Shown here piece by piece: positions 1,342-42,993 of a stretch of DNA of 44,712 bases (position 1 is its first letter; each line of letters begins with the position of its first letter). The notes beneath the pieces are model-generated. The model saw nothing but the letters and a program-made list of their open reading frames with translations. It was not told the DNA's origin and made no database searches. The stretch covers positions 1-44,712 of the IMG/VR virus record IMGVR_UViG_3300037483_000229; one strand, given 5' to 3'. Both the position numbers and the translations under genes were made by a program. This DNA comes from a virus (lineage: Duplodnaviria; Caudoviricetes).

Positions 1342-1377
1342 TGCTTAGCTGATGGCTGATGACCAATCATTCAGGGG

Positions 1378-1668
1378 ATGAAAATGGCAAGCACACCGCA
1401 CCTTAAAGTCTACAACCCAACCCACGGCTACATCGCGGCCTGCAAGTTTGGCGAAGATGCCGCCTGCCTCGCCGCGCTGAACGGCGACGGCACAACTATC
1501 CGCGATGGTCACAGTCACATCGTCTGGACAGAGGGGGCCGAAGCGTTCTCTGCCTCGGAGAGCTACGACCGAGCGGCGTTGCTTATCAACCAGCGCATCG
1601 ATCAAAAGTGGGCAAAAGCTCGTGCCCTTCACGCCGCAAAAGAAGCTGAAGCCGCAGCTCGCGCTTAG
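1378..1668 (+). CDS. hypothetical phage protein
   Basis: ORF with AGGGG RBS, co-oriented with neighbours. Confidence 0.7.
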   Translation: MKMASTPHLKVYNPTHGYIAACKFGEDAACLAALNGDGTTIRDGHSHIVWTEGAEAFSASESYDRAALLINQRIDQKWAKARALHAAKEAEAAARA

Positions 1669-1703
1669 TAAGCCAGATGACTGCGCATTTTTGGGAGATA
1701 ACC

Positions 1704-1958
1704 ATGTCCGCTCTATCGATGACCTCTAAGACCGGCGTCCAATTAACCGAACAGCTTTGCGAACTGACAAGCCGGTGGACCGAGTACGAGGATATTCCGC
1801 CGTCGCAGAAAAGCGAATGCCGTCAGATCGGGGAAAAACTTCATGCCCTCGGCGGGATGAGCGCAATGCAAGACGCCTACTACGAGGCCAAAGGTCGCAA
1901 TCGTGCCGCATCGTCGATCCAGCCGTTTTGGGACGGCGTTGGCGACTGGCGCTGGTAG
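1704..1958 (+). CDS. hypothetical phage protein
   Basis: GGGAG RBS before ATG 1704. Confidence 0.7.
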   Translation: MSALSMTSKTGVQLTEQLCELTSRWTEYEDIPPSQKSECRQIGEKLHALGGMSAMQDAYYEAKGRNRAASSIQPFWDGVGDWRW

Positions 1959-1968
1959 CCGCATCCAT

Positions 1969-1996
1969 ACGCCAGATGACCGAACATAGGGGCCGA
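1969..1996 (+). other. dif-like junction site
   Basis: acgccagATGA-ccgaac-ATAGgggccga; shares 12 bp (ACCGAACATAGG) with the site at 4342. Confidence 0.45.
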
Positions 1997-1998
1997 AG

Positions 1999-2190
1999 AT
2001 GAGACTGATACTGCTTTTGATCGTAAAGCCTTTGGGGATTGCTTGTTGGGTAGTTGGCATCAGCTTGGCGGCACCATTCGTTGTTGCCGGCGGGTGGCTC
2101 GAAAGCAAAGCCGACGATCTGGAAGCTGGTTGGCGTCGAGGCAGCAAACAAAATTGGCTTTGGCGATGGGCAAGGAGTCAAAAGAAATGA
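1999..2190 (+). CDS. small hypothetical membrane protein
   Basis: Hydrophobic N-terminal half; RBS supplied by the upstream junction. Confidence 0.55.
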   Translation: MRLILLLIVKPLGIACWVVGISLAAPFVVAGGWLESKADDLEAGWRRGSKQNWLWRWARSQKK

Positions 2191-2399
2191 GGGATGACGA
2201 ATTTTGCATCGAGCATGGCCGTGATTTCATGCGGTGCGACAAGGGGCCAATCCCGTATTGCAAGGCATGTAATGATCAATTCTCCTGCGACACTACGCCG
2301 TGCGTCAACAAAGCTATGACCGGCGAGCGATGCAAGGGGATTTGTCTAAATCCACGGGACTGCGCCGGTGTCCCTGACCCGGCTGAAATTCGCACATAA
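2187..2399 (+). CDS. small Cys-rich hypothetical protein
   Basis: ATGA overlap with the previous gene; CxxH/CxxC motifs. Confidence 0.55.
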   Translation: MRDDEFCIEHGRDFMRCDKGPIPYCKACNDQFSCDTTPCVNKAMTGERCKGICLNPRDCAGVPDPAEIRT

Positions 2400-2419
2400 C
2401 ACGCATAAGGAAACGTCGC

Positions 2420-3343
2420 GTGCCTGACCCGACCAGAAAAACCATTAGCGCAACGCAGACAGCCGCTTTGTTCGGCGTGTCGCCCTATTATACGCGCTGG
2501 ATGCTATGGCAGCATTTCGCCAATGGCATGGACATCGACCAGCCGGCCGACGCCCGCATGAATTGGGGCAAAAAACTACAGCCTCTCGTTTTGGCGCAAT
2601 GCGCCGATGATTTAAAATTCGAGGTCCATCCGAACGCCGACGACGATTACCACCGCCGCGGCCTGCTCGGCTGCACCCGAGACGCGCAGATCATTTGCCC
2701 GGATCGCGGCCCTGGCGCGCTCGAAACCAAATGCGTGTTCGATTACCGGACGTGGATGACTGAATGGCAGGGCGGCAAGGCGCCGCCGCGCCCGCATGAA
2801 ATCCAGTTGCAGCAGCAGATGCTGGTCGGAGACCAGGAAGGCGAGCCGTACCGCTGGGGCGTGATCGCGGCATGGGTCGCCGGCGAGCAGCACTATTTCG
2901 AGCGCGAGCCGATCCCGGAACTATGGGAACGCATGGCCGGCGAGGCCAGCGATTTCATGTCGACGGTGGCGAACAAGGACGAGCCCGACCCGTTCGGCCT
3001 GCCAATCGAAATTCCGCTGCTCAACCGGTTGTTTCCGACCGTGGCCGACAAGGTGCTGGACCTGACCGGCGAGGAAGGCGCGCATGCCATGGCCGAAAAG
3101 GTCGCCATGTTCCAATTTCATAAGACCGAAGCGAACGCGCATGGCGCCGAGGCCGAAAAGCTGCGCGCTCAATTGCTCGCGGTCGCCAAGGACAACGAAA
3201 GGGTGCTGCTGCCCGAGCGCATCCAAATCAAATGCTCGACGTCGAAGGCCGGCGTCAAGCGCCTGACCGTTTACGTCCCCGACCATGCCGACGCCGGGCC
3301 ACGGCGCGATAGCTTGAATCCAGAAATCATGAGGGCCGGCTGA
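2420..3343 (+). CDS. YqaJ/lambda-exonuclease-family recombination nuclease
   Basis: ISAT..LFGVSPY, WGKKLQP, TRD..LETK and IQLQQQ motifs; directly upstream of RecT. Confidence 0.85.
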   Translation: MPDPTRKTISATQTAALFGVSPYYTRWMLWQHFANGMDIDQPADARMNWGKKLQPLVLAQCADDLKFEVHPNADDDYHRRGLLGCTRDAQIICPDRGPGALETKCVFDYRTWMTEWQGGKAPPRPHEIQLQQQMLVGDQEGEPYRWGVIAAWVAGEQHYFEREPIPELWERMAGEASDFMSTVANKDEPDPFGLPIEIPLLNRLFPTVADKVLDLTGEEGAHAMAEKVAMFQFHKTEANAHGAEAEKLRAQLLAVAKDNERVLLPERIQIKCSTSKAGVKRLTVYVPDHADAGPRRDSLNPEIMRAG

Positions 3344-4335
3344 TGTCCACCAATGCGCTGACCGTTCTCGAAAATCAGTTGAAGCCGCTGGCCCCCCGCT
3401 TTGCCGAGGTGCTTGGCAAAACGATGCCGGTCGAGCGGCTGATCCGCACCGTGGTGCTGTCGGTAGAGCGGCTGCCGGCGCTGATGGACTGCGACCGGCA
3501 GAGCATTTTCAACGCCGCGATGTCGGCGGCGGTACTCGGGCTTGAGGTCGATGGCGTCACCGGCCAGGGCTACCTGATCCCGTTCAAAGGCAAGGCGCAG
3601 CTCGTTATCGGCTACAAGGGCTATAACACCTTGGCGGCGCGCTCCGGGCTGACCGTGACCGGCGCCGTGGTGCGCGAAGGTGATGCCTTCGACTATGAGC
3701 TGGGCGACAAGGGGTTTGTGCGCCACAAGCCGAAGCTTGGCGAGCCGGGCCGGCGCATCGTCGCGGCATGGGCCGTCGCGGCGGCGCATGATCGCCCACC
3801 GATCATTTCAGTGCTGAGCATCGACGATATCAATGCGATCAAGGCCAAGTCGCCTGGTGCCAAGCGGTCGGACAGCCCGTGGAACGATCCGAGCATCGGT
3901 TTTCCGGCGATGGCCGAGAAATCCGCCAAGCGCCGGCTGGCGCGGTCGATGCCGCTTAACGTCATGCAGCTCGCCGCGCGCATGGACGAGGCGTTCGAGG
4001 AACAAGGCGCTGCCGCGCACATCACGCCCGACAAGGGTCTAGTGATCGACGGCGAGTTCAGCCCGATTGCCGATCGCGAGCCGAGCCGGACGCCGACCGC
4101 GACCGAACTGATCTCGCCGGATGCCGATGCGCCAGCCGAAAATATTCCGCCGCTACCCGATGCCGGCAGCCCGTTGCGGCCGCACGACGACGCGCTCGCC
4201 GTCGCAGCGCAGGACGGCATGATCGCGCTGGTCGAGGCGTGGAAAGCGGTGCCGGTCAAAATGCAGCGGGATCTGAAACAGCGGCTCGATCTCGTTCACA
4301 AAGTCGAGGCCGCGAAGGATCGGGCACCGGCATAA
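3343..4335 (+). CDS. recT: RecT-family single-strand annealing protein
   Basis: GQGYLIPF..QLVIGYKG, VREGDxF and MAEKSAKRRL motifs. Confidence 0.88.
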   Translation: MSTNALTVLENQLKPLAPRFAEVLGKTMPVERLIRTVVLSVERLPALMDCDRQSIFNAAMSAAVLGLEVDGVTGQGYLIPFKGKAQLVIGYKGYNTLAARSGLTVTGAVVREGDAFDYELGDKGFVRHKPKLGEPGRRIVAAWAVAAAHDRPPIISVLSIDDINAIKAKSPGAKRSDSPWNDPSIGFPAMAEKSAKRRLARSMPLNVMQLAARMDEAFEEQGAAAHITPDKGLVIDGEFSPIADREPSRTPTATELISPDADAPAENIPPLPDAGSPLRPHDDALAVAAQDGMIALVEAWKAVPVKMQRDLKQRLDLVHKVEAAKDRAPA

Positions 4336-4341
4336 TCGGAC

Positions 4342-4369
4342 ACGGGACACAACCGAACATAGGAAAATA
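4342..4369 (+). other. dif-like junction site
   Basis: acgggacACAA-ccgaac-ATAGgaaaata. Confidence 0.45.
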
Positions 4370-4371
4370 AA

Positions 4372-4668
4372 ATGGCAATGACAGGATCAGACGTTCTCGC
4401 CCTACCAATGGATTTTAACGACGCGGGAGCGACCACCATACGCGCATATTTGCAGGCGCTGCTAGTGACGCTTTGGCAGGAGGGCGAGAGCTTTAGCGGC
4501 AAACGCCCGTTCGGCAACTCAGGCTGGGAATACGACCTCTACAAAGCCCTAATTAAAGGCGGCGCGATTGACGGCACCGTTGATGAGCATGGCGACATCG
4601 GCACGTTTGATACTGACGAAGCGAATGCCGCCGTGTTTCAGGCCATCGAGTCACTGACGACTGCGTGA
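4372..4668 (+). CDS. conserved phage hypothetical protein
   Basis: GESFSGKRPFGNSGW motif, recalled from phage hypothetical proteins. Confidence 0.75.
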   Translation: MAMTGSDVLALPMDFNDAGATTIRAYLQALLVTLWQEGESFSGKRPFGNSGWEYDLYKALIKGGAIDGTVDEHGDIGTFDTDEANAAVFQAIESLTTA

Positions 4669-4691
4669 GCATATCTCTCATTAAGGAACAT
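4664..4691 (+). other. dif-like junction site
   Basis: cgtgagcATAT-ctctca-TTAAggaacat. Confidence 0.6.
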
Positions 4692-4694
4692 GGC

Positions 4695-5441
4695 TTGAAT
4701 GTCCTCGATCTCTTCTCAGGAATTGGCGGTTTCAGTCTCGGCCTTGAACGAGCGGGAATGCGAACCGTCGCATTCTGCGAGATCGACCCGTTCTGCCGTC
4801 AAGTGCTCGCCAAACTATGGCCTCACGTCCCCTGTCACGATGACGTTCGCGCCCTTACTGCCGAGTACCTTGCCGCTACCTCTGCCTCCGGAGACATCAA
4901 GATCGATGTCATCTGCGGTGGATTCCCGTGCCAAGACATCAGCCTGGCAGGAGACGGCGCCGGAATTGACGGAGAACGTAGCGGCCTCTGGCGAGAGTAC
5001 GCCCGAATTATTGGCGAAGTTCGACCCCGCTTCGTCATCGTGGAGAACGTCACAGCTTTGTTTGGACGGCACCTTGGCCGAGTTCTCGGAGACCTGGCCG
5101 CGCTCGGGTATGACGCGGAGTGGGATTGCATACCGGCGTCCTACGTTGGTGCCCGACAACTTCGGGATCGAATTTGGATTGTGGCCTACCCCGACCGCGA
5201 CGGCCTTCAAGGGCGGTCGTTTATCGCCGCGGCGTGGCGTGGCAAATCCCGAAAGGAACAACTGGCAGGACTGGTGCAGCCTTGTGCTTGGCCAACGCTA
5301 TCCGGTGCCAGAGACCGCGGAACAGGTCATGGGGTTCCCAATGGGACACACCGAAATAAAGCCATCGGTAACGCCGTTGTCCCACAAATCCCCGAACTCA
5401 TCGGGCGCGCAATCATGAACCACGAAACCAATTCGCCTTAA
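4695..5441 (+). CDS. DNA (cytosine-5) methyltransferase, catalytic (alpha) chain
   Basis: Motif I DLFSGIGG, IV GGFPCQ, VI ENV, VIII QxRxR, X GNAV. TTG start 4695 follows an AAGGA RBS. Confidence 0.9.
   Translation: MNVLDLFSGIGGFSLGLERAGMRTVAFCEIDPFCRQVLAKLWPHVPCHDDVRALTAEYLAATSASGDIKIDVICGGFPCQDISLAGDGAGIDGERSGLWREYARIIGEVRPRFVIVENVTALFGRHLGRVLGDLAALGYDAEWDCIPASYVGARQLRDRIWIVAYPDRDGLQGRSFIAAAWRGKSRKEQLAGLVQPCAWPTLSGARDRGTGHGVPNGTHRNKAIGNAVVPQIPELIGRAIMNHETNSP
4699..5418 (+). CDS. overlapping alternate-frame ORF, probable methyltransferase beta chain (TRD plus motif IX)
   Basis: 239-codon open +1 frame ending PETAEQVMGFPMGHT (motif IX-like), a motif missing from the main frame. Confidence 0.6.
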   Translation: MSSISSQELAVSVSALNERECEPSHSARSTRSAVKCSPNYGLTSPVTMTFAPLLPSTLPLPLPPETSRSMSSAVDSRAKTSAWQETAPELTENVAASGESTPELLAKFDPASSSWRTSQLCLDGTLAEFSETWPRSGMTRSGIAYRRPTLVPDNFGIEFGLWPTPTATAFKGGRLSPRRGVANPERNNWQDWCSLVLGQRYPVPETAEQVMGFPMGHTEIKPSVTPLSHKSPNSSGAQS

Positions 5442-5442
5442 T

Positions 5443-5811
5443 ATGGTGAGACTGAGCATGACCGACGAGATCGAAGCAGACCAGGACGAAGGGGCAACCG
5501 GCCTCTATCTGCCGGAATGTGAGATCGCGCGCCGTCTCGGTTATGGCCGCTCGAATGGCTACAAGCTCTTGAAAAGGCTGGATCGCGGCATCCCTGGGAT
5601 GCGGGCATATCCACAGCCTGACCCTGTTTTTGGCCGGCGCTTCTGGCCCGCTATTCTGCAATGGCACTTGGACTATCATAGGGTGCGACGTACCGCCGAC
5701 GAAGGCGCGGCACCCCTGCAACCGAAATGGACGGAGAACTTCGATGCAACGCCCGACAAGACCAAGCGGTCTGAGCGCGCCCGGCCTCAACTGGCGGGCT
5801 CGCGCGGATAG
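5443..5811 (+). CDS. excisionase-like HTH protein
   Basis: EIARRLG..PDPVFGRRFWPAI winged-helix pattern; overlaps the integrase start. Confidence 0.65.
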   Translation: MVRLSMTDEIEADQDEGATGLYLPECEIARRLGYGRSNGYKLLKRLDRGIPGMRAYPQPDPVFGRRFWPAILQWHLDYHRVRRTADEGAAPLQPKWTENFDATPDKTKRSERARPQLAGSRG

Positions 5812-7030
5812 CTGGGTTGCTTATTGGGTCGCTCGCGGCGATCTGGTGAAGCGCGGCTATTCACTCAAGTCCGTCCGGCTCTGGCCGCCCTCGACCTCGA
5901 CTGCGCGAGTTGAACCGACGCATGACGAATGGCTGACTATCTCTGCCGGCTGCGAGCGCCTGCAATCTGAAATGCTCGAATGGGCAAACCCGCTCGACTG
6001 GGCCTATGACCCGCGCGCGATCTATGACGGCACCATGAACAGCCTCAAGCGCATCTATCACGACGACCCGGACAGCCCGTTTCAGGAATTGCGGCACGCG
6101 ACCAAGCATACCTATTCGATGAACTCGAACAGCGTTTGCGCGGCGGTCGGGGCCGCTCGCATTCCCGAATTGAACTTCCGCGACTTCAAGAACTGGTACA
6201 AAGGATTTTGCAAACCGAAGAAGCCGGGTGGCCCTATCCGCAAGGCGCGCGGTCACGGACTGATGACCCATGTTCGCCTGATGATCGGCTTCGGCGCGCT
6301 GCTCAAACTGCCCGGCTGCCGTGACGCGAAGGAAACCTTGAGCGCGATGGAGTTTGAGACGGCGAAGCGCCGCGCCGAGTTCATGACGGCAGATCACGCC
6401 ATCGCATTCCGCCGCCAGGCTCACCTTGACGGCGTGCCGTCGATGGCCTTAGCGCAAGCCCTGATGTTCGACCTTGGCGCGCGGCAAAAGGATTGCATCG
6501 GCGAATGGGTGCCGAACAGTGAGCCGGGTCTATCGAGCGTGCTGGACCACGGCGACAAGTGGATTCTCGGCATGACGTGGGAAGAAATCGACGGCGGCAT
6601 TCTCACGCACCGCCTGAGCAAGTCCCTATCCCGCGAGAGCATCCAGAACGCCGACGCCGGCAAGACGAAGCGTTACGACCTGAGCCTTTACCCGATGGTC
6701 ACCGAGGAAATGGCACTGGTGCCAATCGACAAGCGCAAGGGGCCGCTAGTGGTGGCTGAACACACTGGCCAGCCGTGGCGTGGGAAGGTGTTTCAACGGC
6801 GCTGGCGCAAGGTGGCAAAGGCTGCCGGCCTGCCCGCGAATATCCAGAACCGGGACAGCCGGGCGGGCGCTGCGACCGAGGCCGAGAACTCAGGGGCCGA
6901 CATCGAGCGGATCAGGAAAAGCCTGGGGCATTCTCAGGCCAGCACTACGCGGATTTACACCCGCGACGACGATCAGGCGACGGCAGAGGTTGCCATTTTA
7001 CGAGTGAAGAACAGGCAGCAAACGCCATAG
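5744..7030 (+). CDS. int: tyrosine recombinase / phage integrase
   Basis: GARQKD (R), RDSR (variant of HxxR), LGHS and TTRIY catalytic motifs; GGAG RBS before ATG 5744. Confidence 0.9.
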   Translation: MQRPTRPSGLSAPGLNWRARADSWVAYWVARGDLVKRGYSLKSVRLWPPSTSTARVEPTHDEWLTISAGCERLQSEMLEWANPLDWAYDPRAIYDGTMNSLKRIYHDDPDSPFQELRHATKHTYSMNSNSVCAAVGAARIPELNFRDFKNWYKGFCKPKKPGGPIRKARGHGLMTHVRLMIGFGALLKLPGCRDAKETLSAMEFETAKRRAEFMTADHAIAFRRQAHLDGVPSMALAQALMFDLGARQKDCIGEWVPNSEPGLSSVLDHGDKWILGMTWEEIDGGILTHRLSKSLSRESIQNADAGKTKRYDLSLYPMVTEEMALVPIDKRKGPLVVAEHTGQPWRGKVFQRRWRKVAKAAGLPANIQNRDSRAGAATEAENSGADIERIRKSLGHSQASTTRIYTRDDDQATAEVAILRVKNRQQTP

Positions 7031-7140
7031 CAAACGACGATGAACGGGTGCGAACGAAAACAACAGCTTAACTATCGGGCTCCATCCCGTATCATGGCCC
7101 TTATGTTGTTGATTTTGTTGAAGCCCGTTCACTATCGTAG
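7031..7140. other. putative attP region
   Basis: Non-coding gap after int with nested imperfect inverted repeats (ACGACGATGAACGGG / CCCGTTCACTATCGT; AAAACAACAGCTTAA / TTATGTTGTTGATTTT) around a ~30-bp core. Confidence 0.55.
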
Positions 7141-7145
7141 GTCAA

Positions 7146-7364
7146 GTGAAGCTTTTGAAAGTTCAAAGAATGTCGAAACGAGCCAACAGCATGTTCATTG
7201 ACGACGCCGAAATCCGCGAGCGTTTCCCCGACAAGGCAGACGCCATTATCGCGGCGCTGGACGAACTCGGCACCACCCAGAAGAACAAGGCCACCCGCCC
7301 GAAGGAAGCCAGGTTTCGGCCTGCGGTCGATGTCTGGCTAGAGGCCAACGGGTTCGTGAGCTAA
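7146..7364 (+). CDS. small Xis-like protein (apparent paralogue of 5443-5811)
   Basis: FIDDAEIRER..RFRPAVDVWL resembles YLPECEIARR..RFWPAILQWH. Confidence 0.5.
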   Translation: MKLLKVQRMSKRANSMFIDDAEIRERFPDKADAIIAALDELGTTQKNKATRPKEARFRPAVDVWLEANGFVS

Positions 7365-7394
7365 CTGCCAATTAATGAACGACAGGAGATTTAT

Positions 7395-7661
7395 GTGAAT
7401 ACGAACGCGCAGAAGTTAGCCGAAGCCGACCGCATCATCGACGTGGCGGCGGGCCATCTCTACACCATCGAGGCGGAGAATGAGCGCCTGCGCATGGGCC
7501 CTGACCTTGAAACGCTGGCCGATGCAATCGACGCTGCTCGTTTTGCTCACCCTCAAAACCCGCGAGAGCGGCCACGCTCGTTTGAGGACGCTGACCCAAG
7601 TGATCGCGAGTATGCAACGCGGCTAGCTAAGGCGGTCATAGCCGTTTGGCCTCATCGCTAA
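7395..7661 (+). CDS. hypothetical protein
   Basis: AGGAG RBS, GTG start. Confidence 0.7.
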   Translation: MNTNAQKLAEADRIIDVAAGHLYTIEAENERLRMGPDLETLADAIDAARFAHPQNPRERPRSFEDADPSDREYATRLAKAVIAVWPHR

Positions 7662-7692
7662 TCATGCAAGACTGCGAATTTTGGAGGGATAG

Positions 7693-7851
7693 ATGGCGCC
7701 AACCGAGAAGCGGCCCCTATGGGAATGTCCGAAGTGTCATGAGCATTTTTACCAAGAAGTTGTCAACTCAGGGACGGCGGTTTGTCCCCTCCGCGATAGC
7801 AAGTGCCCGACTAAGGGGCGCCCAGTTCCGCCGCACGGGTCTGGTCCATAA
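7693..7851 (+). CDS. 52-aa zinc-ribbon-like protein (MAPTEKRPLWECPKC...), absent from the ORF track
   Basis: GGAGGG RBS; CPKC..CPxxxxxC; fills the gap exactly up to a junction site. Confidence 0.6.
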   Translation: MAPTEKRPLWECPKCHEHFYQEVVNSGTAVCPLRDSKCPTKGRPVPPHGSGP

Positions 7852-7868
7852 GAACGGTTAATGACCAT
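7841..7868 (+). other. dif-like junction site
   Basis: ctggtccATAA-gaacgg-TTAAtgaccat. Confidence 0.6.
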
Positions 7869-8130
7869 GGCCATGATCGAGTGCAAGGACTGCGGTGCAA
7901 TCGTTGAGGAGCCCGGAATGTATTGCAGCGCCGTAGAGACGCTAGTTTGCCAAGGCCGCGATCATATCCCGCCGTGTGGCGAGGTTCTCTCTGGCGAGGA
8001 ACGGCACTACTACGGGACGACCTGTGAGAAGTGCGAGCGAGAATGGGGCTTTCGAATTGAAGCTTGGCGCATGGGCGCTGTCGATACCGAGTTAGACCAA
8101 ATGTTCGATAGCCCGCGCCAAGTTCATTAA
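7861..8130 (+). CDS. Cys-rich hypothetical protein
   Basis: CxxC motifs; co-oriented. Confidence 0.6.
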   Translation: MTMAMIECKDCGAIVEEPGMYCSAVETLVCQGRDHIPPCGEVLSGEERHYYGTTCEKCEREWGFRIEAWRMGAVDTELDQMFDSPRQVH

Positions 8131-8157
8131 TGGGCCGTCACCAATGAACAGGAGAGA

Positions 8158-8709
8158 TTGATGCCAAAAGGAACAGCGGTCGAACGCCGGATCAAGTTGC
8201 GCAATGCGGAAGAAATGGAACAAGCAGCCTATAAAAAGTTCATGGAAACCGTAGGTATACCGATGCTAGTTGCCGATGAGGTCAGCCTGCGCCGTCTCGC
8301 TCAGACAAGAGCGAAGAACCGCCATCAGCTTCTCTATGAGGCTGTTGAGTTTGCTGCTGGCATCGCCGATTTGGCTGAGCAAAAACAAGATGCCGACTAT
8401 GGTTCCGCCAACACTGGCGGGGCGGCGCTCGTGGCCACGACGATTAGGGCCTACGCCGAAACGCTATTGGCGCATCGCGAGATAGACGAACTGTTTTTGC
8501 TGGATTGGGAGTCAATGGATACGGCACCGAAGGACGGCAGATCAATCCTCATTGCAATCGAGAACGGTGCCGTTGGCGAGGCGCGATACGTTGAGGATGC
8601 TGGTTGGTACTGGTCGGGGAGCGATCCGACGGACCAGCATGATGGCAGCGTTCAAGGCGAAGTCGCGTGGCAGCCGATGCCGGTTTACCCGAAGAACAAA
8701 GGCCGTTGA
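8158..8709 (+). CDS. hypothetical protein with DUF551-like C-terminus
   Basis: WESMDTAPKDG..WQPMP motif; AGGAG RBS. Confidence 0.7.
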   Translation: MMPKGTAVERRIKLRNAEEMEQAAYKKFMETVGIPMLVADEVSLRRLAQTRAKNRHQLLYEAVEFAAGIADLAEQKQDADYGSANTGGAALVATTIRAYAETLLAHREIDELFLLDWESMDTAPKDGRSILIAIENGAVGEARYVEDAGWYWSGSDPTDQHDGSVQGEVAWQPMPVYPKNKGR

Positions 8710-8716
8710 GGAGAGG
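8689..8716 (+). other. dif-like junction site
   Basis: ccgaagaACAA-aggccg-TTGAggagagg. Confidence 0.45.
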
Positions 8717-8722
8717 TTAGCG

Positions 8723-8980
8723 ATGCGTCAGCTGGCACTCGAACTAGAACCATCACAGCGTGTTTGTGATTCTGTCACGTCATGGCAGGAGATAGACGCT
8801 GCCACGCCAACCGATCGTGCATTACAGATCGGATTTTGGATTACGGCAGAATCGCGCTGGCAGTACCTATTCCACACAGCTTGGAATAACCGAATGCCGA
8901 GGCCAGGTTTCTACTGCGACGATGATCTTTTGAAGCCGTCGCATTGGCGCGACATTGGCAAGCCGCATAGGGGTGGTTAA
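8723..8980 (+). CDS. hypothetical protein, DUF551-like
   Basis: WQEIDAATPTDR..PSHWR motif; GGAGAGG RBS. Confidence 0.6.
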   Translation: MRQLALELEPSQRVCDSVTSWQEIDAATPTDRALQIGFWITAESRWQYLFHTAWNNRMPRPGFYCDDDLLKPSHWRDIGKPHRGG

Positions 8981-8987
8981 TGAACAC
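8960..8987 (+). other. dif-like junction site
   Basis: aagccgcATAG-gggtgg-TTAAtgaacac. Confidence 0.6.
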
Positions 8988-9168
8988 GATTTTAGCAGAG
9001 ATCGCCATTGTCTCAGATGAGTTCGGGCATAGCGTGGTTATGAACTACGACGGCAAAGAAGTGAAACGCAGCCTGGCTTATAATGACCGAAAAGACGCCG
9101 AAGATGAGGCTGAGATGTGGACGATGATCGCCAAGGACTGCGGCGGCACTCAAATTAAAAATCAATAA
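8980..9168 (+). CDS. hypothetical protein
   Basis: TAATG coupling to the previous gene. Confidence 0.65.
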   Translation: MNTILAEIAIVSDEFGHSVVMNYDGKEVKRSLAYNDRKDAEDEAEMWTMIAKDCGGTQIKNQ

Positions 9169-9175
9169 GGGTGGA
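9148..9175 (+). other. dif-like junction site
   Basis: actcaaaTTAA-aaatca-ATAAgggtgga. Confidence 0.5.
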
Positions 9176-9177
9176 CG

Positions 9178-9384
9178 ATGAAAATGGACGAGATTGCCGA
9201 AATACTTCTCGCAGGTCGAAAGATGGCAGCGAGAACAGGAAGCAGGTTCCGGGTTGACCCTTCGCGCTGCGCCGCGTTCGGCTTCACACCCGCGCAAATG
9301 AAGCGCGTTGAGGCGACCGTCAAGAAAATCGAGGACTACACCGCCACGCAACTAGCAGGCCTGCGTTCGGACAAGAGGGGTTAA
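9178..9384 (+). CDS. hypothetical protein
   Basis: RBS present; co-oriented. Confidence 0.6.
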   Translation: MKMDEIAEILLAGRKMAARTGSRFRVDPSRCAAFGFTPAQMKRVEATVKKIEDYTATQLAGLRSDKRG

Positions 9385-9391
9385 GACGAAT
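9364..9391 (+). other. dif-like junction site
   Basis: cgttcggACAA-gagggg-TTAAgacgaat. Confidence 0.5.
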
Positions 9392-9572
9392 GTCAGAACT
9401 AGACTATCTTCCGCCGCTGACACCTGAGCAAATCGAGGTTTTCCGACGCCGGGCCTACACGTTGGATAATTGCGGCACCTTCTATCTTCGCGGCTTGGTC
9501 GATGCGTGCGGGCGAGACGAGGAACCGGGCCGACTCTTGCGAGCAAAGCTCGAAACCAGTTCACCCATATGA
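9390..9572 (+). CDS. hypothetical protein
   Basis: Fills the interval between two junction sites. Confidence 0.55.
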   Translation: MSELDYLPPLTPEQIEVFRRRAYTLDNCGTFYLRGLVDACGRDEEPGRLLRAKLETSSPI

Positions 9573-9587
9573 CGCGTTAATACGAAC
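9560..9587 (+). other. dif-like junction site
   Basis: ttcacccATAT-gacgcg-TTAAtacgaac; left arm shared with the 10093 site. Confidence 0.6.
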
Positions 9588-9622
9588 AGATTCAAAACGG
9601 CCCATGGCTAGGCTATAGTTTG

Positions 9623-9850
9623 ATGATGACACAGGAAAAACTAGACAGTCTCGAACGAGACCTCAGATGCGCAATCGCATAGCGCGATAAAGCCAATGCT
9701 GAGCGTGACAAAATCATGCTCGCCCTAATCGAAATTGAAAGGAAGATTATTGCTTTGGGCAAGCCATGCGAGGTGTGTGGAAAGCCGTTCGCTCCAAAAC
9801 GGAAGAACAGCCGCTGTTGCTCCCCCGAGTGCTACAAAAGAGCGTTTTAG
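9623..9850 (+). pseudogene. coiled-coil plus zinc-finger ORF interrupted by an in-frame TAG at 9680-9682
   Basis: MMTQEKLDSLERDLRCAIA*RDKANAERDK...CEVCGKPF..CCSPEC reads as one protein through the stop. Confidence 0.55.
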
Positions 9851-9852
9851 CC

Positions 9853-10113
9853 ATGTCTTTAACAGAATACGAGAACTCAGTTCTAACGACCATCGCGAAG
9901 AAGTGCGCCCGCACCCACTGGTGTGAGCCACCCCGCGAGGATGCGGTCGCAACCGCCCTCAGGCATTTATCCGCCCACAAAATGATTACTCGAAAGTATG
10001 AGGCATGGTGGTTAGTTCGCCCGACAGAAAAGGCGATGGTTCACATCGCGTCCCGAAAAAAGGTGAGACGGCAGGTGTACCGCACCACCAAATTCACCCA
10101 TACCGCCGCTTAA
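9853..10113 (+). CDS. hypothetical protein
   Basis: ATG 2 nt after the previous stop; ends in a junction site. Confidence 0.55.
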   Translation: MSLTEYENSVLTTIAKKCARTHWCEPPREDAVATALRHLSAHKMITRKYEAWWLVRPTEKAMVHIASRKKVRRQVYRTTKFTHTAA

Positions 10114-10120
10114 GGAGAAT
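10093..10120 (+). other. dif-like junction site
   Basis: ttcacccATAC-cgccgc-TTAAggagaat. Confidence 0.6.
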
Positions 10121-10123
10121 GAC

Positions 10124-10345
10124 GTGTCAGAATTATTCACTCGGGAACAGTGCGAAAAATACTTTCGTGAGGAAGTAGCTGACGCTGGAGGCGCTAAAAA
10201 GTGGCTCAAGAAAAACAAGGTCTATGGAATGGACCATGTTCACCACATGGTGAATGATGGAAGCTATTTCGAGCATCCCGTCGTAATGGACCGGCTAGGA
10301 TTCAAGAAGGTTGAGCGGTGGGAAGCCGTTCGCGTTCATGGCTAG
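10124..10345 (+). CDS. hypothetical protein (possible small HTH)
   Basis: TAAGGAG RBS, GTG start. Confidence 0.7.
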   Translation: MSELFTREQCEKYFREEVADAGGAKKWLKKNKVYGMDHVHHMVNDGSYFEHPVVMDRLGFKKVERWEAVRVHG

Positions 10346-10356
10346 TTAAGGAACAG
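10329..10356 (+). other. dif-like junction site
   Basis: ttcgcgtTCAT-ggctag-TTAAggaacag. Confidence 0.55.
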
Positions 10357-10360
10357 GAAG

Positions 10361-10546
10361 ATGGGCGAAGAAGCGGACGCTGACTGGCAAGAGGGCCTTA
10401 TTGAGTGGGGCTACAGAGACGCGAGTAATCGCTGTCCGACGTGTGGACGCACCGATCTTGAATATAATAGGGCCACTAAGTCGAGACCGTGGCGCTGTGG
10501 AGACCATTGGCACGGTGACGATCATTTGCGAAAGCAACACCGCTAA
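10361..10546 (+). CDS. small zinc-ribbon-like hypothetical protein
   Basis: MGEEAD start, CPTC motif, AGGA RBS. Confidence 0.65.
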   Translation: MGEEADADWQEGLIEWGYRDASNRCPTCGRTDLEYNRATKSRPWRCGDHWHGDDHLRKQHR

Positions 10547-10563
10547 CGTGTCGTATGGAAGTT
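10536..10563 (+). other. dif-like junction site
   Basis: aacaccgCTAA-cgtgtc-GTATggaagtt. Confidence 0.55.
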
Positions 10564-10566
10564 GGA

Positions 10567-10698
10567 ATGCTGGACTGGATCGGATATCAGCTTACGGTGC
10601 GGGTGCCATGGTCGATTGCCATGCGCACGACTTGCAACGCCGACAGCCGCATAGGGCAATGGTGCCTGCCGCGCGCCGGCAACCATGCATATAGCTAG
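10567..10698 (+). CDS. 43-aa hypothetical protein (MLDWIGYQLTVRVPW...), absent from the ORF track
   Basis: Exactly fills the interval between junction sites 10536 and 10682. Confidence 0.5.
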   Translation: MLDWIGYQLTVRVPWSIAMRTTCNADSRIGQWCLPRAGNHAYS

Positions 10699-10714
10699 TT
10701 CGACGGAGGGTAAG

Positions 10715-11152
10715 ATGGTTCTGCCGATACAGATAAAGAATGGCGATGTATACAGGGACGCTACGCCGACAGAACTGCGGTTGCTTTTTAAGATCGAGCA
10801 ACTACGGACGGCGCTAGAGCGGGTACTGCTGGACATTGATTTCATGGTCGAGCGCGGCACGTTGGCCGACATAAGCAGCGCCACGATCCCGCAAGGACGA
10901 TGGCGATACCAAGTCGGCGGCTCATGGCCTTCGACCGCTACGGCGGCGGCGAAGGTCGTCAAGTTCAAGATTGAGTATCCTGAGCTGTTCGGTGTAGCGC
11001 CTTATTTGCTCGGAGATTATCTGCTTGACAGAGTCGGACGTGTCGGGGTTTTTCCGAAGCTCGTAGTCGAGCCGGTCTATTTGCGCCTGTGTATTATCGC
11101 GCGCACTTTCTTTCGTTGCGATTTGAAGCGCGGTGAATTGCTCCGAGTTTGA
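10715..11152 (+). CDS. hypothetical protein, probably 3'-truncated near 10875 and running on antisense into the late gene
   Basis: GGAGGG RBS; last ~230 nt overlap the - strand gene 10922-11341. Confidence 0.45.
   Translation: MVLPIQIKNGDVYRDATPTELRLLFKIEQLRTALERVLLDIDFMVERGTLADISSATIPQGRWRYQVGGSWPSTATAAAKVVKFKIEYPELFGVAPYLLGDYLLDRVGRVGVFPKLVVEPVYLRLCIIARTFFRCDLKRGELLRV
10878..10907. terminator. imperfect GCAA-loop hairpin where the early (+) and late (-) arms converge
   Basis: CGCCACGATCC-CGCAA-GGACGATGGCG; no U-tract. Confidence 0.3.
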
Positions 11153-12472: not shown

Positions 12473-13093
12473 TCAGGTTGCCGCGATGATGTCCGCGTAA
12501 AACTGCTTGTGAATCGCCGCGATTTCGGCCGCGCGATCGGTGCCGTTGATGATCCGGCGGGCATTGACCGGATCGTTCTTGGTCGCGCTGAAATAGTCGG
12601 CCAGCTTTTTGCCGGTGAAAACGCCGTGGATCATCCCGTCGAACAGGATGAACGACGCGATATCGAGCCGCATGGCGAGGTCGGGGTTTTTTACCAGATC
12701 TACGTCGAAGCCGGCCGCCTGCAGGCGTGTCGTCATCGCCGCGTAGTTGTTTTTCCAGGTCAGTTGGACGAAGCCCTTGCCGGAATACAGGATGCCGTCG
12801 CCCTTGGTCCGATTGCCGTTGCGCTTCGCCAGCGCCGGCCGCGCGCCAGTCGGGTCGTACATGCGCGTCAGGTAAGCCTTGCCGCCGGCTTCCTGAATGG
12901 GCTGCATGGTGTGGTCGGTTTCCCATTTGGTCGTCGCCAGCATGTAGGCCAGCCAGCGCGGATCATCGAGCTGCCGGCGCTCCCACTCGTCGAGAATGGC
13001 CGTGATGCCTTTGACGTTACCGGCGGTCAGCTTGCCCGGAAACGGAGTGTGGCGGATGCCGTCGAAAAATGCCTTGCGGTCGATGTTACCCAT
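12473..13093 (-). CDS. endolysin, GH19/chitinase-like lysozyme family
   Basis: LAYMLATxxWET, GKGFVQLTWKNNY and ARRIINGTDRA motifs. Start placed at ATG 13093 from promoter spacing. Confidence 0.85.
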   Translation of the reverse strand: MGNIDRKAFFDGIRHTPFPGKLTAGNVKGITAILDEWERRQLDDPRWLAYMLATTKWETDHTMQPIQEAGGKAYLTRMYDPTGARPALAKRNGNRTKGDGILYSGKGFVQLTWKNNYAAMTTRLQAAGFDVDLVKNPDLAMRLDIASFILFDGMIHGVFTGKKLADYFSATKNDPVNARRIINGTDRAAEIAAIHKQFYADIIAAT

Positions 13094-13134
13094 GCCGCGA
13101 CGGTGCTTGCCGGCGCCCTGTCCAGCAACGCACC
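13094..13134 (-). promoter_or_regulatory. late promoter motif (leaderless endolysin)
   Basis: GGTGCGTTGCTG-N17-CACCGT-N6-ATG. Confidence 0.7.
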
Positions 13135-13200
13135 GCAGGCCGCAGGGCCGGTTGTGAGATTGAGGTTTTGCCACTATGGTCGCCTGATCAGGAGGCCACC

Positions 13201-13542
13201 ATGATTTTTACGGTAAAGCGCAGTGTTTTGCTGTGGGGGGCGTTGCTGGCCACGTTGATGTTGGCGATTGTCGGCATGGCTTACCTTGCGGACCCGCGAC
13301 CCAGGAGCGAGCGTCACCGCGATGCGATACGCTTCCTCATCGCTCGTGGTGTCATATCACCAACCAACCACGTTGTTATCGTTGACCTAACATTTTGCGG
13401 TGGTGCTCTGACGGGCGTTTACGTCTACGCCTATCCGAGGCCCGGTAGAGACGTAGACGGACGCTTATGCTGGGATCGTTCCGCTAAACGATGGTTCGCA
13501 CACAAGCTCGCGCCCGCCGACACGCTCATGAAAGACCGTTGA
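13201..13542 (+). CDS. membrane-anchored hypothetical protein (moron)
   Basis: AGGAGG RBS; N-terminal TM; opposite strand to the late operon. Confidence 0.65.
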   Translation: MIFTVKRSVLLWGALLATLMLAIVGMAYLADPRPRSERHRDAIRFLIARGVISPTNHVVIVDLTFCGGALTGVYVYAYPRPGRDVDGRLCWDRSAKRWFAHKLAPADTLMKDR

Positions 13543-13554
13543 TTTCAGCGCTGG

Positions 13555-15156
13555 TTATAAGTCTTTCCCGCGTGTGTCGACCCAGCCATTAACATAAATG
13601 CTGAATACTAAATTTGCATCGCTGGCGCTGTGTCGCGTGCGAATTTGCGCGCTGGTATTCGTGCAAACTTCATCTTGATAGGTGGACCGGTGATCTGTAA
13701 CAGCCGTTGCAGACACGTCTATATGATTCAGCGTTGAACTTGGCGCGGTGTCTGTTTGGTCGAGAGATGTGATTAATATTGTATTTCCAAGCCCGCCGCC
13801 TCCTCTCGCTGCCGCAGCGGAAATAATAGCGTCAACCTTGATGCCGATAGGCACATGCAGAGTACGAGACACGGCACTGGTTCCAGGGCTTGTTATGGCC
13901 GCAACGGAAGCAATTGGCACTTTGCGTGAGAATTTATCGTTTTTTTGAATATATGGGACAATGGCCCCGCCTTCGCGCAAAATTGACGCGACGCGGCGGA
14001 AATACACATACCCGGATGGCAGCACCGCTGTCGGGTCGACCCCCGTATAGGCGAAATAGTCGGTGGTGCCGTCAACCTTGCCGATGAGAAACAGGTGGTA
14101 GGTCGTGTCGGTGATGGCCGTGGTGTAGCGCATGCCGTTGCCGGTGCCTTCGGCGAAGTCGGCGTCGAGCCGCTTGGTCATCGCCGTGCCGGTCATATCT
14201 ACCGTATTGGTGTAATCGCGCGCCACGCCCTCCGCGAAGTCGATGTCGTTGGTGGCATCGGTCGCGTTGTTTGCCGTGATCAGGCCGTCGATGTAGCCGC
14301 GCGGCAGCGCGGAAGTGGACGCGGCCCACGTTGCGTCGGTGCCGTCCGATTTCAGGAAGGTGCCGGACGCGCCCAGCGCATAGGCGGCCCATGCCGCGGC
14401 CTCGCGCCGCAGCACCATGCCGCGCGTCGAGCCGAACACGGAATCGAGCAGCGCGCTGACCGTCGAGAACGCCACGGCATCGCTCTGGCGGGCCAGCAAT
14501 AGGCCGTTGGATGCGGCCGAGATATCCGCCGGGTCGCCGGTGGAATTGGCGCTGCGCCCGATAACCGAGCACGCGCCGGAATCCCGCAGATAGGCGTTCG
14601 ACACCGCATCGTTTGCCAGCGTGCCGCCGCCCAATACAGGCGCGGCCTCATAGCTCGGCTTGCCGTCCGAATCCCATTTGAAATAGTTGCCGGCACGGGT
14701 GGCGATGCTGGGCAGCACCATGTCGACGGTTTCGCCCGGCCGGCCGATCAGCGTGCGGGTGCGCAGCATGTCCCAGACCTCGCGCAGCCGGGCCACGATA
14801 TGCGTCACGATCTGGTTGAAATCGTGCGCCGAAACGCCTTGTCCTTCGGTGAGTTGCGACGTGCGCCGCGGCCGGTCGGCGCCGACGATATCGATGTCGC
14901 CGGTGCGCGCCGCGGTGAACGTCACGCGCGCGTCGGTAATGGGTCGGGCCAGCACGGCGAGCGAGCCGGATGGGCTGTCGAGCGTCCAGTCGGTGACCGC
15001 AGTCAGCTTCACGCCGTCGTCGTAGACCTCAAGCCACTGCGCGTAGTCAGTGCCGTTGCCGTAAATATCGAACGAGACATTGATAGGCCCCGTCGAGACC
15101 GCAATGGTGGACCGCGTGCGCCGTTCTGTGTCGGGAAGCGTCGGGATCGCCGTCAT
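13555..15156 (-). CDS. tail fibre / receptor-binding protein
   Basis: T7 gp17-like N-terminal adaptor (DRPRRTSQL..HDFNQ); Ala/Thr-rich body; follows the ejection proteins. Confidence 0.8.
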   Translation of the reverse strand: MTAIPTLPDTERRTRSTIAVSTGPINVSFDIYGNGTDYAQWLEVYDDGVKLTAVTDWTLDSPSGSLAVLARPITDARVTFTAARTGDIDIVGADRPRRTSQLTEGQGVSAHDFNQIVTHIVARLREVWDMLRTRTLIGRPGETVDMVLPSIATRAGNYFKWDSDGKPSYEAAPVLGGGTLANDAVSNAYLRDSGACSVIGRSANSTGDPADISAASNGLLLARQSDAVAFSTVSALLDSVFGSTRGMVLRREAAAWAAYALGASGTFLKSDGTDATWAASTSALPRGYIDGLITANNATDATNDIDFAEGVARDYTNTVDMTGTAMTKRLDADFAEGTGNGMRYTTAITDTTYHLFLIGKVDGTTDYFAYTGVDPTAVLPSGYVYFRRVASILREGGAIVPYIQKNDKFSRKVPIASVAAITSPGTSAVSRTLHVPIGIKVDAIISAAAARGGGGLGNTILITSLDQTDTAPSSTLNHIDVSATAVTDHRSTYQDEVCTNTSAQIRTRHSASDANLVFSIYVNGWVDTRGKDL

Positions 15157-18344: not shown

Positions 18345-21300
18345 TACGGCACCCCGAACGGCAGGCGCGGATCGCGGTCAATCAGACGCTCGACTTCGGC
18401 CACGCCTCGGGCCTTGTCGTATTGCGCGCCGCGCGCCGCGCTCTGGCGGTCGCGCAGGCCTTTGGCGTCGACCATAAACACGCGACCCGGATTAAGCGTG
18501 CGCGGCACGCCATCGGCGTCCTGCCACAGCAATTGATACGGCACCGGCTGGCCGGACTTGAACGCCGAGGCGGTGGCGCCAGCGATCGGCATCAGCGCGA
18601 TCTTGCCGCGCGCGACCGTCTGCCCGCTTTCCGTCGTGATCGAGGCCATGGCGTCGTCGGCGATCAGATCGGAGGCGTTCGGGATGCGATCAATGCCCGG
18701 CGCCTTCTCGGGCGGGTAACGCATGACCGTCGCGGCGCCTGACACGTTCGACGCGCCCCAGACGATCTTGAGTTGCCGCTGCGCGAGCTTTTGCGCCGTC
18801 GGCAAATCGCCGGCGCCGTGCCCGTCGAGGTAATAATCCTTCGTCAGTTCGGCATAGTCGCGGAACATCTCGTCGCGCTGGCCCGGCGTGAAGCCGATCT
18901 GCGGATTGTTGCCAAGGCCGAGGAAACTATCGTCGAACGCGCCCCGAAGATCGGACACGTCAAGCTTCTTTTTCAGAAGCGCGTCGACATCCTCGTTTTT
19001 CACGCGCGCCTTGATCTTGCCCTGATACTCGGGATCGCGGTTTACAATCAGTTTCGCCGCCGCCTGCTCCGCGTTCATGCCGAGATCGTCGACGTAGTGG
19101 CGGAAGGCCACCGCTTCGTCCTCGATGGCCTTGCGCCCGGCGACAGAGCCGAAAGCGTTTGGATCGTCGGCGAGCAGCGACGATGCAAAGCCCGCCGCGA
19201 CCGCGACCTGTTTCGGATCGTTGGACATAAGCCGCCCTTGGAACGCCTTCTCCTCGGCATCGCCATTGAAGATCGAACCCTGCGCAAGCCCGTCGTGCGC
19301 CTGGATGACGTCGCGGAACGCGCGCCGCTGGGTGACCGCGGCCGACAAACTGGCCGGATTGTCGAAGTTCAACGCGGCCGGCGCGACGTGCAGGCCGCGC
19401 GCAGCGCCCGTCGAATAGGGCGTTTTCTTCATGCCCTCCTCGACCTTGCGAATAGCGTCCTCCGTGCTGTCGATAACGCGGCGCTGCCGCGCATCGCCGC
19501 CTTGCCCCGCTATGGCCGCCATCTGTGCCCGGAACGCCTCGCGTGCGCCAACCGGCATACGGAGCGCCACTTGCGAAGCGTCATGCGTGGCGAGCGCCCC
19601 GTCGACCCGCTCAATTAGGTCATGGCGGCCGGTCTCGAGCAGCACTGCGGCGATATCCGCAATTTCGCTATCGGCGGGCCGCCGGCCTTTGCCGATTGCC
19701 GCCTCAAGCGTCGACACCATGCCGTCGGCGCGCGAGGCCATGCTTTTGCTGACGTCGTTGACCATTTCCTGCCGGACGGCGGACACCCATGGCGAAGCGA
19801 TGGGGGAAATACCCACTTCGCCGCCGGGCGTCGACCCGACTTTGCGCTCGGCCCAGGCGACCATCTGCGCGGCGGTCGGATTGCGGTTGAAAATCGACGC
19901 ATTCGCCTCAATCGAGGCTGGCGTGACCAAGCCATGTACGATCTGCCCCGGCGGGGCTTTGAGCACCTTGATGGCGTCGGCAGGCCCGAGGAAATGCGCG
20001 AGGTACAATGCGCCGTTATCAACGCGCGCGCCGGCCGCACTAAGCGCCTGCCGGTTCTGGTCGGCATAGCGGCCGACCATCTCGCGCGACAGGTCTTTGT
20101 TGCGGCGAAGATCGAGCACCTCCGCATCGCTCTTGCCGGCCGCGATATCCGGCCGGGTGCGCTTGACCAGATCGAGCCAAGTTCGGTCGATGAACTGACC
20201 GGCACCGGTCGCCGACGAGCTCGGATTTTTGGCATTGGCGTTGCCGCCGCTTTCAGCGCCGATAATCCTGTCCTCAAGCGACGCGCCGGAGCGCATCGCC
20301 CGCAGCGCTTCGACCTGTTCCGGCACCGGCAACGCGGCAAGCGACGTGCGCCAGTTATGGAACGCCTGGTAGGTCGAAAGCTTGTAATAGCCCTCGACAT
20401 CGCCCATTTCGGCGCTTTGCGTCATCAGGTCGTTAAACCGTCGCGGGTCGTATGGCGCCGATGTTTTCAGCGCCTCGATGGTTTCGGTCACCAGTTTTTT
20501 ATGGGCGTCGACCGCGATCTTGTTCGCCGACGTGCGGCCCTCGATAGCGGCCATGCCCATCGTGACGATCTGCTGGCGCTGCGCCGGCGCCAAGTTCATC
20601 GCCGGGTCCCATGCCGCTTCCGTCAGGAACCTGCGCGCCTCGGCCGCCGCCGCCGGCGTCGCCTTGTCGTAAATCGACATGGCCTTGCCGATGACGGCCT
20701 GCCCCTTGTGCCGCGATATCGTTTCGGCCACTTCGGCGTCGACGCGCGCCTGCGGATATTTGAACCGCGCATCCTTGGCGAGTTCGCCGTAAAGGGTCGA
20801 AATGCCGTCGCGAAGTTCGACGTATTCCGCCGTGTCGGTGCCGCCCTGCCGTGCCAGCGCCGCGCCTTTGTTGTCGAGGTCGGTAATGCGCGCTTTGTAG
20901 GTTTCCAGCGCATTCGACGTATTGAGCGCATCGGCTGACGTGAGGGCGGTGCGGTAGTTCTGTCCGCCTTCGCGCAACAGCACCTTCTCGATGGCCGGCT
21001 TGACCATCGGGTCGGCCTTGCCAGCGTATTCTTTCGAATACGAATCCCACGCCTGCTGAAAGCCCTGCGGGTCGTTCTGGTATTGCAACCTGATTTCGGT
21101 CGCCTTGTTCTCGATCAGCGGCTCGGCCTGCGCGAGATAGGTCATGCGCGCGGCGCGCGAGAACGCCACCGCCGCATTGCCGATGATCGGCAACGGGCCG
21201 CGCTCGATTTTCAGCGACCCGTCCTCGGATTTTTGAACGGACTCGTTGCCCGCTCGCTCGGCGGCGATGACGGACACCTGATCGAGCGTTTCACCGACTT

Positions 21301-42036: not shown

Positions 42037-42085
42037 GCGGCCCTCAATGCTGTATGAATGCGATGCGGCGTTTAGATTGCCAGCA

Positions 42086-42897: not shown

Positions 42898-42993
42898 TTG
42901 CTGCTCCGTGTGAAAAGCGCGGCCCGCCGCCTCGCGACAGACGCCACGCAATATTTCTGGATTGAAACCCCGCACGCGATACGCAACAAAAAC

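Follow-up and report, generated by a model that had tools for sequence, protein, structure and literature searches.

Ordered sites with unique 7-nt centres at the gene junctions of temperate phages: candidate crossover points for slot-by-slot gene exchange

What are the two-armed sites that recur at the gene junctions of the virus record IMGVR_UViG_3300037483_000229, and what might they do? This record (44,712 bases, analysed at its full length and called the window here) is a complete virus record of a temperate phage with podovirus-like virion genes, and it encodes RecE/RecT, a DNA methyltransferase, a repressor and a single tyrosine integrase (5744-7030). A sequence-only reading had proposed that nearly every junction downstream of the integrase and its attP carries a site of 11, 6 and 11 bp resembling dif, the target of XerC and XerD, and that host XerCD or the adjacent integrase may excise, capture and reorder one-gene cassettes. 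We found an array of 17 co-oriented sites from 1353 to 10547, which spans the RecET and integrase modules and whose centres are shared with other phages (Table 1). Each site consists of two loosely symmetric 10-bp half-sites flanking a 7-nt centre, about 27 bp in all. We lean toward the view that the sites are crossover points at which a tyrosine recombinase swaps genes slot by slot between phages.

The evidence begins with the centres, which we also call addresses, and their order. An alignment of 59 integrases led to 51 metagenome and 80 viral loci (G-numbers denote phage records and L-numbers the loci compared with the window). In L262 and L185, centres of the window lie at gene junctions, in the same order and between unrelated genes. 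When 228 strands were searched with arms taken from the window only, the longest ordered chains held 9 (L262), 5 (L223) and 4 (L204) centres, and 200 letter-shuffled address sets never gave a chain above 4; DNA-pattern scans added L276, with a chain of 8. Whole records gave ordered chains of 18 centres between the window and G001, 17 between the window and G002, and 20 between G001 and G002, a few members of each being due to chance; the null means were 3.4-4.5 and the null maxima 8, 7 and 9, respectively. The phages compared in these three chains share 5-26 protein clusters, and the window and G001 have no virion gene in common (tblastn, 1e-4). Chains between the window and G003, G004, G005, G006, G007, G008 or G009 did not exceed the null maximum, and G003-G007 were accepted on a later catalogue scan in which they also served as training data. 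G012, which is independent of training, gave a chain of 4 against a null maximum of 3.

Among 17 selected sequences, 41 centres recur in at least three phages (null mean 3.85, maximum 10), their order is concordant in 971 of 1004 pairs, and no centre is duplicated within any phage. The shared centres are all found on the coding strand and follow a single order; the late strand of the window has none (chains of 0-1). Comparing every pair among 55 integrase loci that extend 3 kb or more downstream, 12 of which had at least four ordered centres, brought out a second group of six phages. In these phages, which stand outside the training set, the address list overlaps partly with the first and the 7-nt symmetry recurs (r = 0.76); the DNA of their integrase regions is 71-85% alike. 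Two pattern scans covering 186 loci yielded the new arrays of G002 and G005 and found two known ones again, and a further scan of 119 loci yielded no array. A pattern of one left arm returned 121 loci that were AT-rich chance matches with no chain above 1, and an endolysin query returned 8 loci with no array. Parts of the records of three cultured phages with the same integrase (ppBjS10J-1, NV1.1.1 and Mwe-JY08) and five bacterial prophage loci contained no run of catalogue addresses. A three-address pattern had 4 matches, none with arms, in 401 genomes of the Bradyrhizobium family, and a two-address pattern matched 99 of 401 genomes of the order; the latter pattern was too loose, and the matches listed looked like chance.

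To describe the sites we used a half-site model trained on 103 hand-curated sites with 27 centres from 8 records. When chains were built on the middle five bases of the centre only, the first and last centre bases still agreed in 53 of 55 pairs, whereas the bases just outside matched at frequencies of 0.76 (baseline 0.77) and 0.60 (baseline 0.48). Because both end bases match and the flanking bases stay at the baseline, the conserved core is exactly 7 nt. The profile of the left arm is a reflection of that of the right arm if the centre is given an odd length: the correlation is 0.76 for 7 nt, and -0.08 to 0.05 for 6 or 8; centres of 5 and 9 nt, which have the same axis as 7, gave 0.76 and 0.72. 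The half-site consensus has T beside the centre (159/206), A or T at the third place (202/206) and G at the sixth (142/206). Two arms resemble each other to about the same degree whether or not they come from the same address, and eight 8-mers are used both as a right arm and, mirrored, as a left arm (null mean 2.0, maximum 7). Pairing of the arms within a site is no better than random (p = 0.21-0.91; folding energy -1.53, and -1.45 after re-pairing); the sites are, therefore, read as duplex DNA. Complementarity between the arms at cassette ends fell from p < 0.001 to p = 0.021 under a within-genome null and is not relied on. A repeat search of the window found only short degenerate families.

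The association with early gene junctions is strong. With the model trained without the window and a threshold of at least 6 bits, 18 of 26 early (plus-strand) gene ends scored, whereas the ends of late or replication genes did so in 1 of 32 cases (Mann-Whitney p = 1.8e-7); between 7364 and 10698, 12 of 14 early gene ends did so. The co-oriented junction motif of the sequence-only reading, far beyond chance, is borne out, as is its likeness to tyrosine-recombinase core sites. Its 11-6-11 geometry gives way to a symmetric 7-nt centre. All eleven 28-mers that it listed are present where it placed them. A matrix built from them ranked six left-out sites within the top 29 of 89,370 positions and, in a genome scan, recovered a further site at 4664; four left-out sites ranked poorly (109, 187, 1862 and 3314), which hinted at register errors. 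Six shared addresses had been read in the correct register (7841, 8960, 9364, 9560, 10093 and 10329) and three had not (the true centres start at 7662, 8710 and 10547). For the site given as 9148, the best centre (9159) occurs in no relative examined, and the site at 10682 is likely decayed, because its centre is one base off a shared address and its arms score -5.1. The supposed off-spacing variants near 7354 and 8111 are regular sites with centres at 7365 and 8131. Nor is the array confined to the region downstream of the integrase and attP, where it had been seen; it also reaches left of the integrase (centres 1353, 1970, 2399, 4343, 4674 and 5442).

The sites bound mostly single genes whose content differs between phages, as the notion of one-gene cassettes had it. 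When slots with the same two bordering centres were compared in the first group of array phages, only 2 of 84 pairs were homologous (two slots that cross piece borders are left out of this count), and in the second group 3 of 77 same-slot pairs were, all of them the integrase slot. Even the larger modules behave as cargo. The corresponding slot of G002 carries RecE and RecT genes 78% and 84% identical to those of the window, and that slot of G001 has no match; the slot that holds xis, int and attP contains another integrase family in G002 and two recombinases in G001. Integron-like excision and reordering, as first proposed, does not fit these data. Since no genome has the same centre twice and the centres keep their order, cassettes appear to be replaced in place. 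We also noted homologous DNA methyltransferase genes in different slots (window 4665-5441; L204 8503-9173; after the integrase in L230, 4484-5193). In L185 (about 8680-10240) an insertion sequence, which we take to be IS1595-like from its appearance, interrupts a cargo gene inside a slot, and L001 (about 12870-14700) has a similar element.

How could such an arrangement arise? Simple sites of tyrosine recombinases have inverted arms of 9-13 bp around an overlap of 6-8 bp (excerpt of PMC2095811), and the array sites, with mirror-symmetric arms of about 10 bp and a 7-nt centre, have this form. Comparison of the phages indicates that presumed exchange partners have the centre in common rather than the arms, and in pdif modules exchange follows spacer identity, including exchange of a single module through a cointegrate (excerpt of PMC13141974). 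Given this simple-site geometry and the spacer-matched exchange of pdif modules, we take the centre to be the overlap, and the array to be a series of heterospecific crossover points. The centre would be the region of strand exchange, and efficient exchange would require that the two centres be identical. When a superinfecting phage meets a prophage or a co-infecting phage, one crossover would give an in-register hybrid, and two would replace a slot or a block of slots; crossovers in register between co-resident phages would thus swap slots and keep their order. If a centre were duplicated, the DNA between the copies would be deleted, so that each centre would stay unique. Rarer crossovers at unlike centres or within similar arms might account for precise slot loss and for cargo moved to another slot. 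We consider it probable that temperate phages of alphaproteobacteria share a coordinate system of dozens of ordered heterospecific 7-bp sites, which a tyrosine recombinase uses to trade modules in register among phages that are otherwise unrelated. Such a system would span accessory genes plus the recombination and integration modules, and would be a site-specific machinery behind modular phage mosaicism.

Several observations weigh against this interpretation. No recombination event has been seen; the source run X1 offered contigs only, at a depth of about 9 and with no joints, and is uninformative. Nor did we find a near-identical phage pair able to map a breakpoint to a centre. The half-sites are very degenerate, the 103 training sites were picked by hand from chain and catalogue comparisons, and arms of the same address show a small excess of identity at outer positions (0.37 vs 0.26 at -8 and 0.41 vs 0.28 at +11). 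A gene that is 90.7% identical over 205 nt lies between different centres in L208 and L221, and another, 72% identical over 740 nt, does so in L198 and L221; such near-identical cargo in different slots means that addressing is not strict. The identity of the enzyme raises further difficulties. The eight first-group array phages have no recombinase common to all. The window-type integrase is encoded by seven of them, six of which were found through it, and is missing from G002. Arrays are scattered on a quick version of the integrase tree, with four non-array loci in the clade of the window. Finally, the attP core of the window scores -9.2 on the half-site model, and the att cores of the integrase family lie below the array median of 9.2.

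The adjacent integrase, one of the two enzymes named in the sequence-only reading, finds no support as the obvious driver, as it lies inside a slot, is replaced by another family in G002 and belongs to a lineage that does not predict arrays. The att core of its family does fit the half-site model weakly, in one register only and with a 7-nt centre, the best register mostly scoring 0 to 5 bits (background 99th percentile, 1.7). Lambda-type integrases have a 7-bp overlap. The enzyme would most likely be one with such an overlap acting in trans, and need not be the integrase of the same genome; we infer that an integrase-like enzyme of this kind ranks first and XerCD second. G001 (20038-21666) and G004 (41648-44284) each have a pair of neighbouring tyrosine recombinases that belong to different families. 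These pairs may be candidates for the enzyme, or may mark a second attachment site.

One alternative is that the recombinases are host XerC and XerD, which would treat the sites as degenerate forms of dif whose central region has 7 nt. We compared dif arms from five genomes related to Bradyrhizobium, taken in place of the host, and drew on a table of rhizobial dif sites (excerpt of PMC2731167). The likeness to a rhizobial dif arm suggested by the sequence-only reading is real for XerD, whose arm lies in register at about the 99.5th percentile of the half-site model (97.9-99.8th across the comparison); the XerC arm reaches the 99.6-99.8th percentile when shifted by one base but only the 83rd in register. 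A host enzyme would also explain one half-site and the lack of a common recombinase among unrelated phages, and Xer does use a 29-bp dif-like site in the VGJ phage (excerpt of PMC4246890). The array centre, however, has 7 nt and is symmetric, with arms that serve on either side, whereas pdif sites are polar with a 6-bp spacer (excerpt of PMC13141974). Arms of dif quality are rare: both arms match host dif at 7 or more of 11 positions in 1 of 103 sites with the 7-nt centre and in 4 of 103 with the 6-nt centre first proposed, and the mean best identity is 4.8-5.4 of 11 against a background of 3.25. We regard action of XerCD on these sites as unlikely. In the same comparison, two of the five bacterial genomes (L612 and L613) had a second dif-like site with a different 6-bp centre, possibly pdif-like or belonging to a secondary replicon.

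A second alternative, which we think more doubtful still, is that the centres are short boundary sequences for phage annealing proteins (RecT, ERF or Sak) or for illegitimate recombination, with the arms serving as translation or regulatory signals. RecE and RecT are encoded by the window and G002, and cargo that has changed slots keeps arm-like ends, which are partly carried along. Seven bases are short for annealases. Moreover, the identity shared at an address spans exactly 7 nt, and the mirror-symmetric motif on its flanks does not depend on the address; RecET is itself cargo, not found in G001 or G004 (tblastn, 1e-4) and present in five relatives that lack an array.

It is also conceivable, with a still lower probability, that the sites bind a regulatory protein, as an operator, roadblock, antiterminator or RNA-processing signal, and have no role in gene exchange. 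They are symmetric, confined to the early leftward operon and overlap stop codons and ribosome-binding sites, and the sole protein cluster that touches all eight array phages is a chained cI/Cro-like cluster. Against this, unique centres are kept letter for letter and in order though the repressors are only about 28-34% alike, and there is no hairpin signal. Lastly, the motif could arise simply where closely spaced genes bring stop codons, start codons and Shine-Dalgarno words together, but this is excluded for practical purposes: although 49 of the 103 sites have a stop triplet at -3 to -1 and many right arms contain Shine-Dalgarno-like words, the 54 left arms lacking that stop keep the profile unchanged (A beside the centre in 42, A or T at the third place in all 54), late junctions score in the single case given above, and composition cannot yield ordered 7-mers. 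The signal, thus, goes beyond stop-codon and ribosome-binding-site composition, a point on which the sequence-only reading had staked its case.

If the sites are crossover points, how do they compare with known systems? Recombinase-mediated cassette exchange uses heterospecific lox or FRT sites whose centres do not cross-react and so define slots that can be replaced in place. By analogy, the array would work most like this tool, which is engineered and has two sites with fixed arms, whereas the phage arrays are natural, with 17-24 sites and degenerate arms. Lambda-type integrase core sites also have inverted, degenerate arms around an odd 7-nt centre, but these enzymes act at one attP with arm-type sites; the array has many core-only sites, and the attP core of the window does not fit the half-site model. 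The pdif modules of Acinetobacter Rep_3 plasmids (excerpt of PMC13141974) are small modules between two-armed sites with variable centres, whose recombination needs identical or nearly identical centres and in which a single module can be exchanged by cointegrate formation and resolution. According to that excerpt, pdif sites are polar, have a 6-bp centre and alternate in orientation, their spacers repeat within a plasmid and their modules are shuffled. The array sites are symmetric, have 7-nt centres and all point the same way; no centre recurs within a genome, and the order holds across distant phages. The array sites have neither the distinct host-like XerC and XerD arms nor the alternating orientation of dif and pdif sites.

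Integron cassettes resemble the array in being co-oriented and in carrying mostly single, promoterless small genes (attC/attI and IntI; excerpt of PMC2095811); the array lacks the attC hairpin, its sites are only about 27 bp and its order is conserved rather than shuffled. No IntI scored above the family cut-off (32.4 bits against 265 for TIGR02249). With 7 nt between its arms, the array site recalls the simple site of attI. The PeSL cassettes of T4-type phages (excerpt of PMC2839356) and boundary sequences (excerpt of PMC3029335) are likewise repeated intergenic elements at which phage modules are exchanged, but they are described there as near-identical repeats or short homologies used by general recombination, the PeSL repeats having a promoter and a stem-loop. 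The array copies differ at the centre, their arms are not conserved by address, and no near-identical repeats were found within the genome, only short degenerate families. A literature search that left most subscription papers outside its coverage found no description of ordered address sites in phages.

The usual explanation of phage mosaicism is recombination of an illegitimate or relaxed homologous kind, since most junctions show no boundary sequence (excerpt of PMC3029335). The junctions described here carry a hidden ordered code. With no more than seven shared bases between degenerate arms, it escapes ordinary repeat searches. Should the sites recombine, the swapping of genes among phages would become a defined and testable reaction and the slots would map the entry points of accessory genes; more than 40 natural centres, together with the enzyme, would provide an orthogonal site set for multiplexed cassette exchange.

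Table 1. Array sites and other features of the window. Values given as "score" (bits) are from the half-site model with the window left out of training.
Feature	Position	Strand	Centre	Centre shared with	Remarks
Address site	1343..1369	+	1353-1359	G001, G002	same rank; score 8.1
Address site	1960..1986	+	1970-1976	G002	score 9.1
Address site	2389..2415	+	2399-2405	G001, G002	left border of RecE/RecT slot; score 10.3
RecE-like exonuclease and RecT-like annealase	2420..4335	+			PHROGs 434 and 148; cargo of one slot
Address site	4333..4359	+	4343-4349	G001, G002	score 10.7
Address site	4664..4690	+	4674-4680	G001, G002	before DNA methyltransferase gene; outside training set, recovered by the matrix from the earlier 28-mers
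Address site	5432..5458	+	5442-5448	G001, G002	left border of integration slot; score 11.9
Small gene before int, likely excisionase	5458..5811	+			identity from its position; no Pfam/PHROG match
Tyrosine integrase	5744..7030	+			sole PF00589 match of the record; cargo between centres 5442 and 7365
Likely attP	7034..7138	.			38-nt inverted repeat around core near 7081-7096
About 15 small cargo ORFs (43-182 aa)	7191..11152	+			mostly one per slot; without confident family
Address site	7355..7381	+	7365-7371	G001, G002, G003, G005	earlier "7-nt variant"; score 10.5
Address site	7652..7678	+	7662-7668	G001, G002, G003	earlier 7645, misregistered; score 11.8
Address site	7841..7867	+	7851-7857	G001, G002, G003, G005	
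Address site	8121..8147	+	8131-8137	G001, G002, G004	earlier "5-nt variant"; score 12.9
Address site	8700..8726	+	8710-8716	G001, G002, G005, G006, G012	earlier 8689, misregistered
Address site	8960..8986	+	8970-8976	G001, G002, G004, G006, G007	
Candidate site	9149..9175	+	9159-9165		6.9-7.4 bits; centre in no relative examined
Address site	9364..9390	+	9374-9380	G001, G002	
Address site	9560..9586	+	9570-9576	G001, G002, G004	
Address site	10093..10119	+	10103-10109	G001, G002, G004, G006, G012	
Address site	10329..10355	+	10339-10345	G001, G002, G004, G006, G007, G012	
Address site	10537..10563	+	10547-10553	G001, G002, G003, G005, G006, G007, G008	earlier register one base off
Likely decayed site	10682..10708	+	10692-10698		one base from centre at same rank in G001, G002, G004

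Some further sites deserve mention. A two-armed site at 386-412 of the window (11.9 bits) precedes an M15-peptidase-like gene (433-1341), and its centre is absent from the relatives examined. Another high-scoring site, at 25864-25890 on the minus strand, lies in the tail region, and its centre also occurs with arms in G001 (L458); it may mark a lone slot within the late genes. In L001 (7300-12900), L215 (11400-14100) and L132 (1900-5600), other words recur at the junctions of arrays that follow the integrase. Some of these words are repeated within a genome and some are common to several phages, and they may represent additional address sets or decayed ones. Many high-scoring sites, but no shared centres, were seen in L252, L189 and L206.

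The host of the window phage is likely an alphaproteobacterium, because the integrase has relatives in genomes of Bradyrhizobium and in phages of Bradyrhizobium and Sinorhizobium, and because the phage has a GapR-like gene. In two Bradyrhizobium loci (L451 and L452, 7400-8100), the 3' end of what is likely a response-regulator gene matches the att core of these relatives, and the integrase family appears, from this match, to insert there. The presumed excisionase gene had 56 tblastn matches, adjoining the integrase, among 143 related loci; when the open reading frames (ORFs) of the window array were compared with the same loci, only the first 21-25 residues of 10361-10546 matched, but short words from between the genes did recur in these loci. 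A blastn search of the array against 50,697 GenBank phages returned only four 30-nt chance matches. PP395640.1 (L133 and L615), a phage recorded from Microcystis, has the same integrase family and a DUF2312 gene; it looks alphaproteobacterial, and its host label may be doubtful. A tandem repeat of about 57 nt, encoding 19 residues of a leucine-rich-repeat-like sequence, occupies both ends of the window (44325-44712 and 1-130), and the record is probably a circle broken inside this leucine-rich-repeat-like gene.

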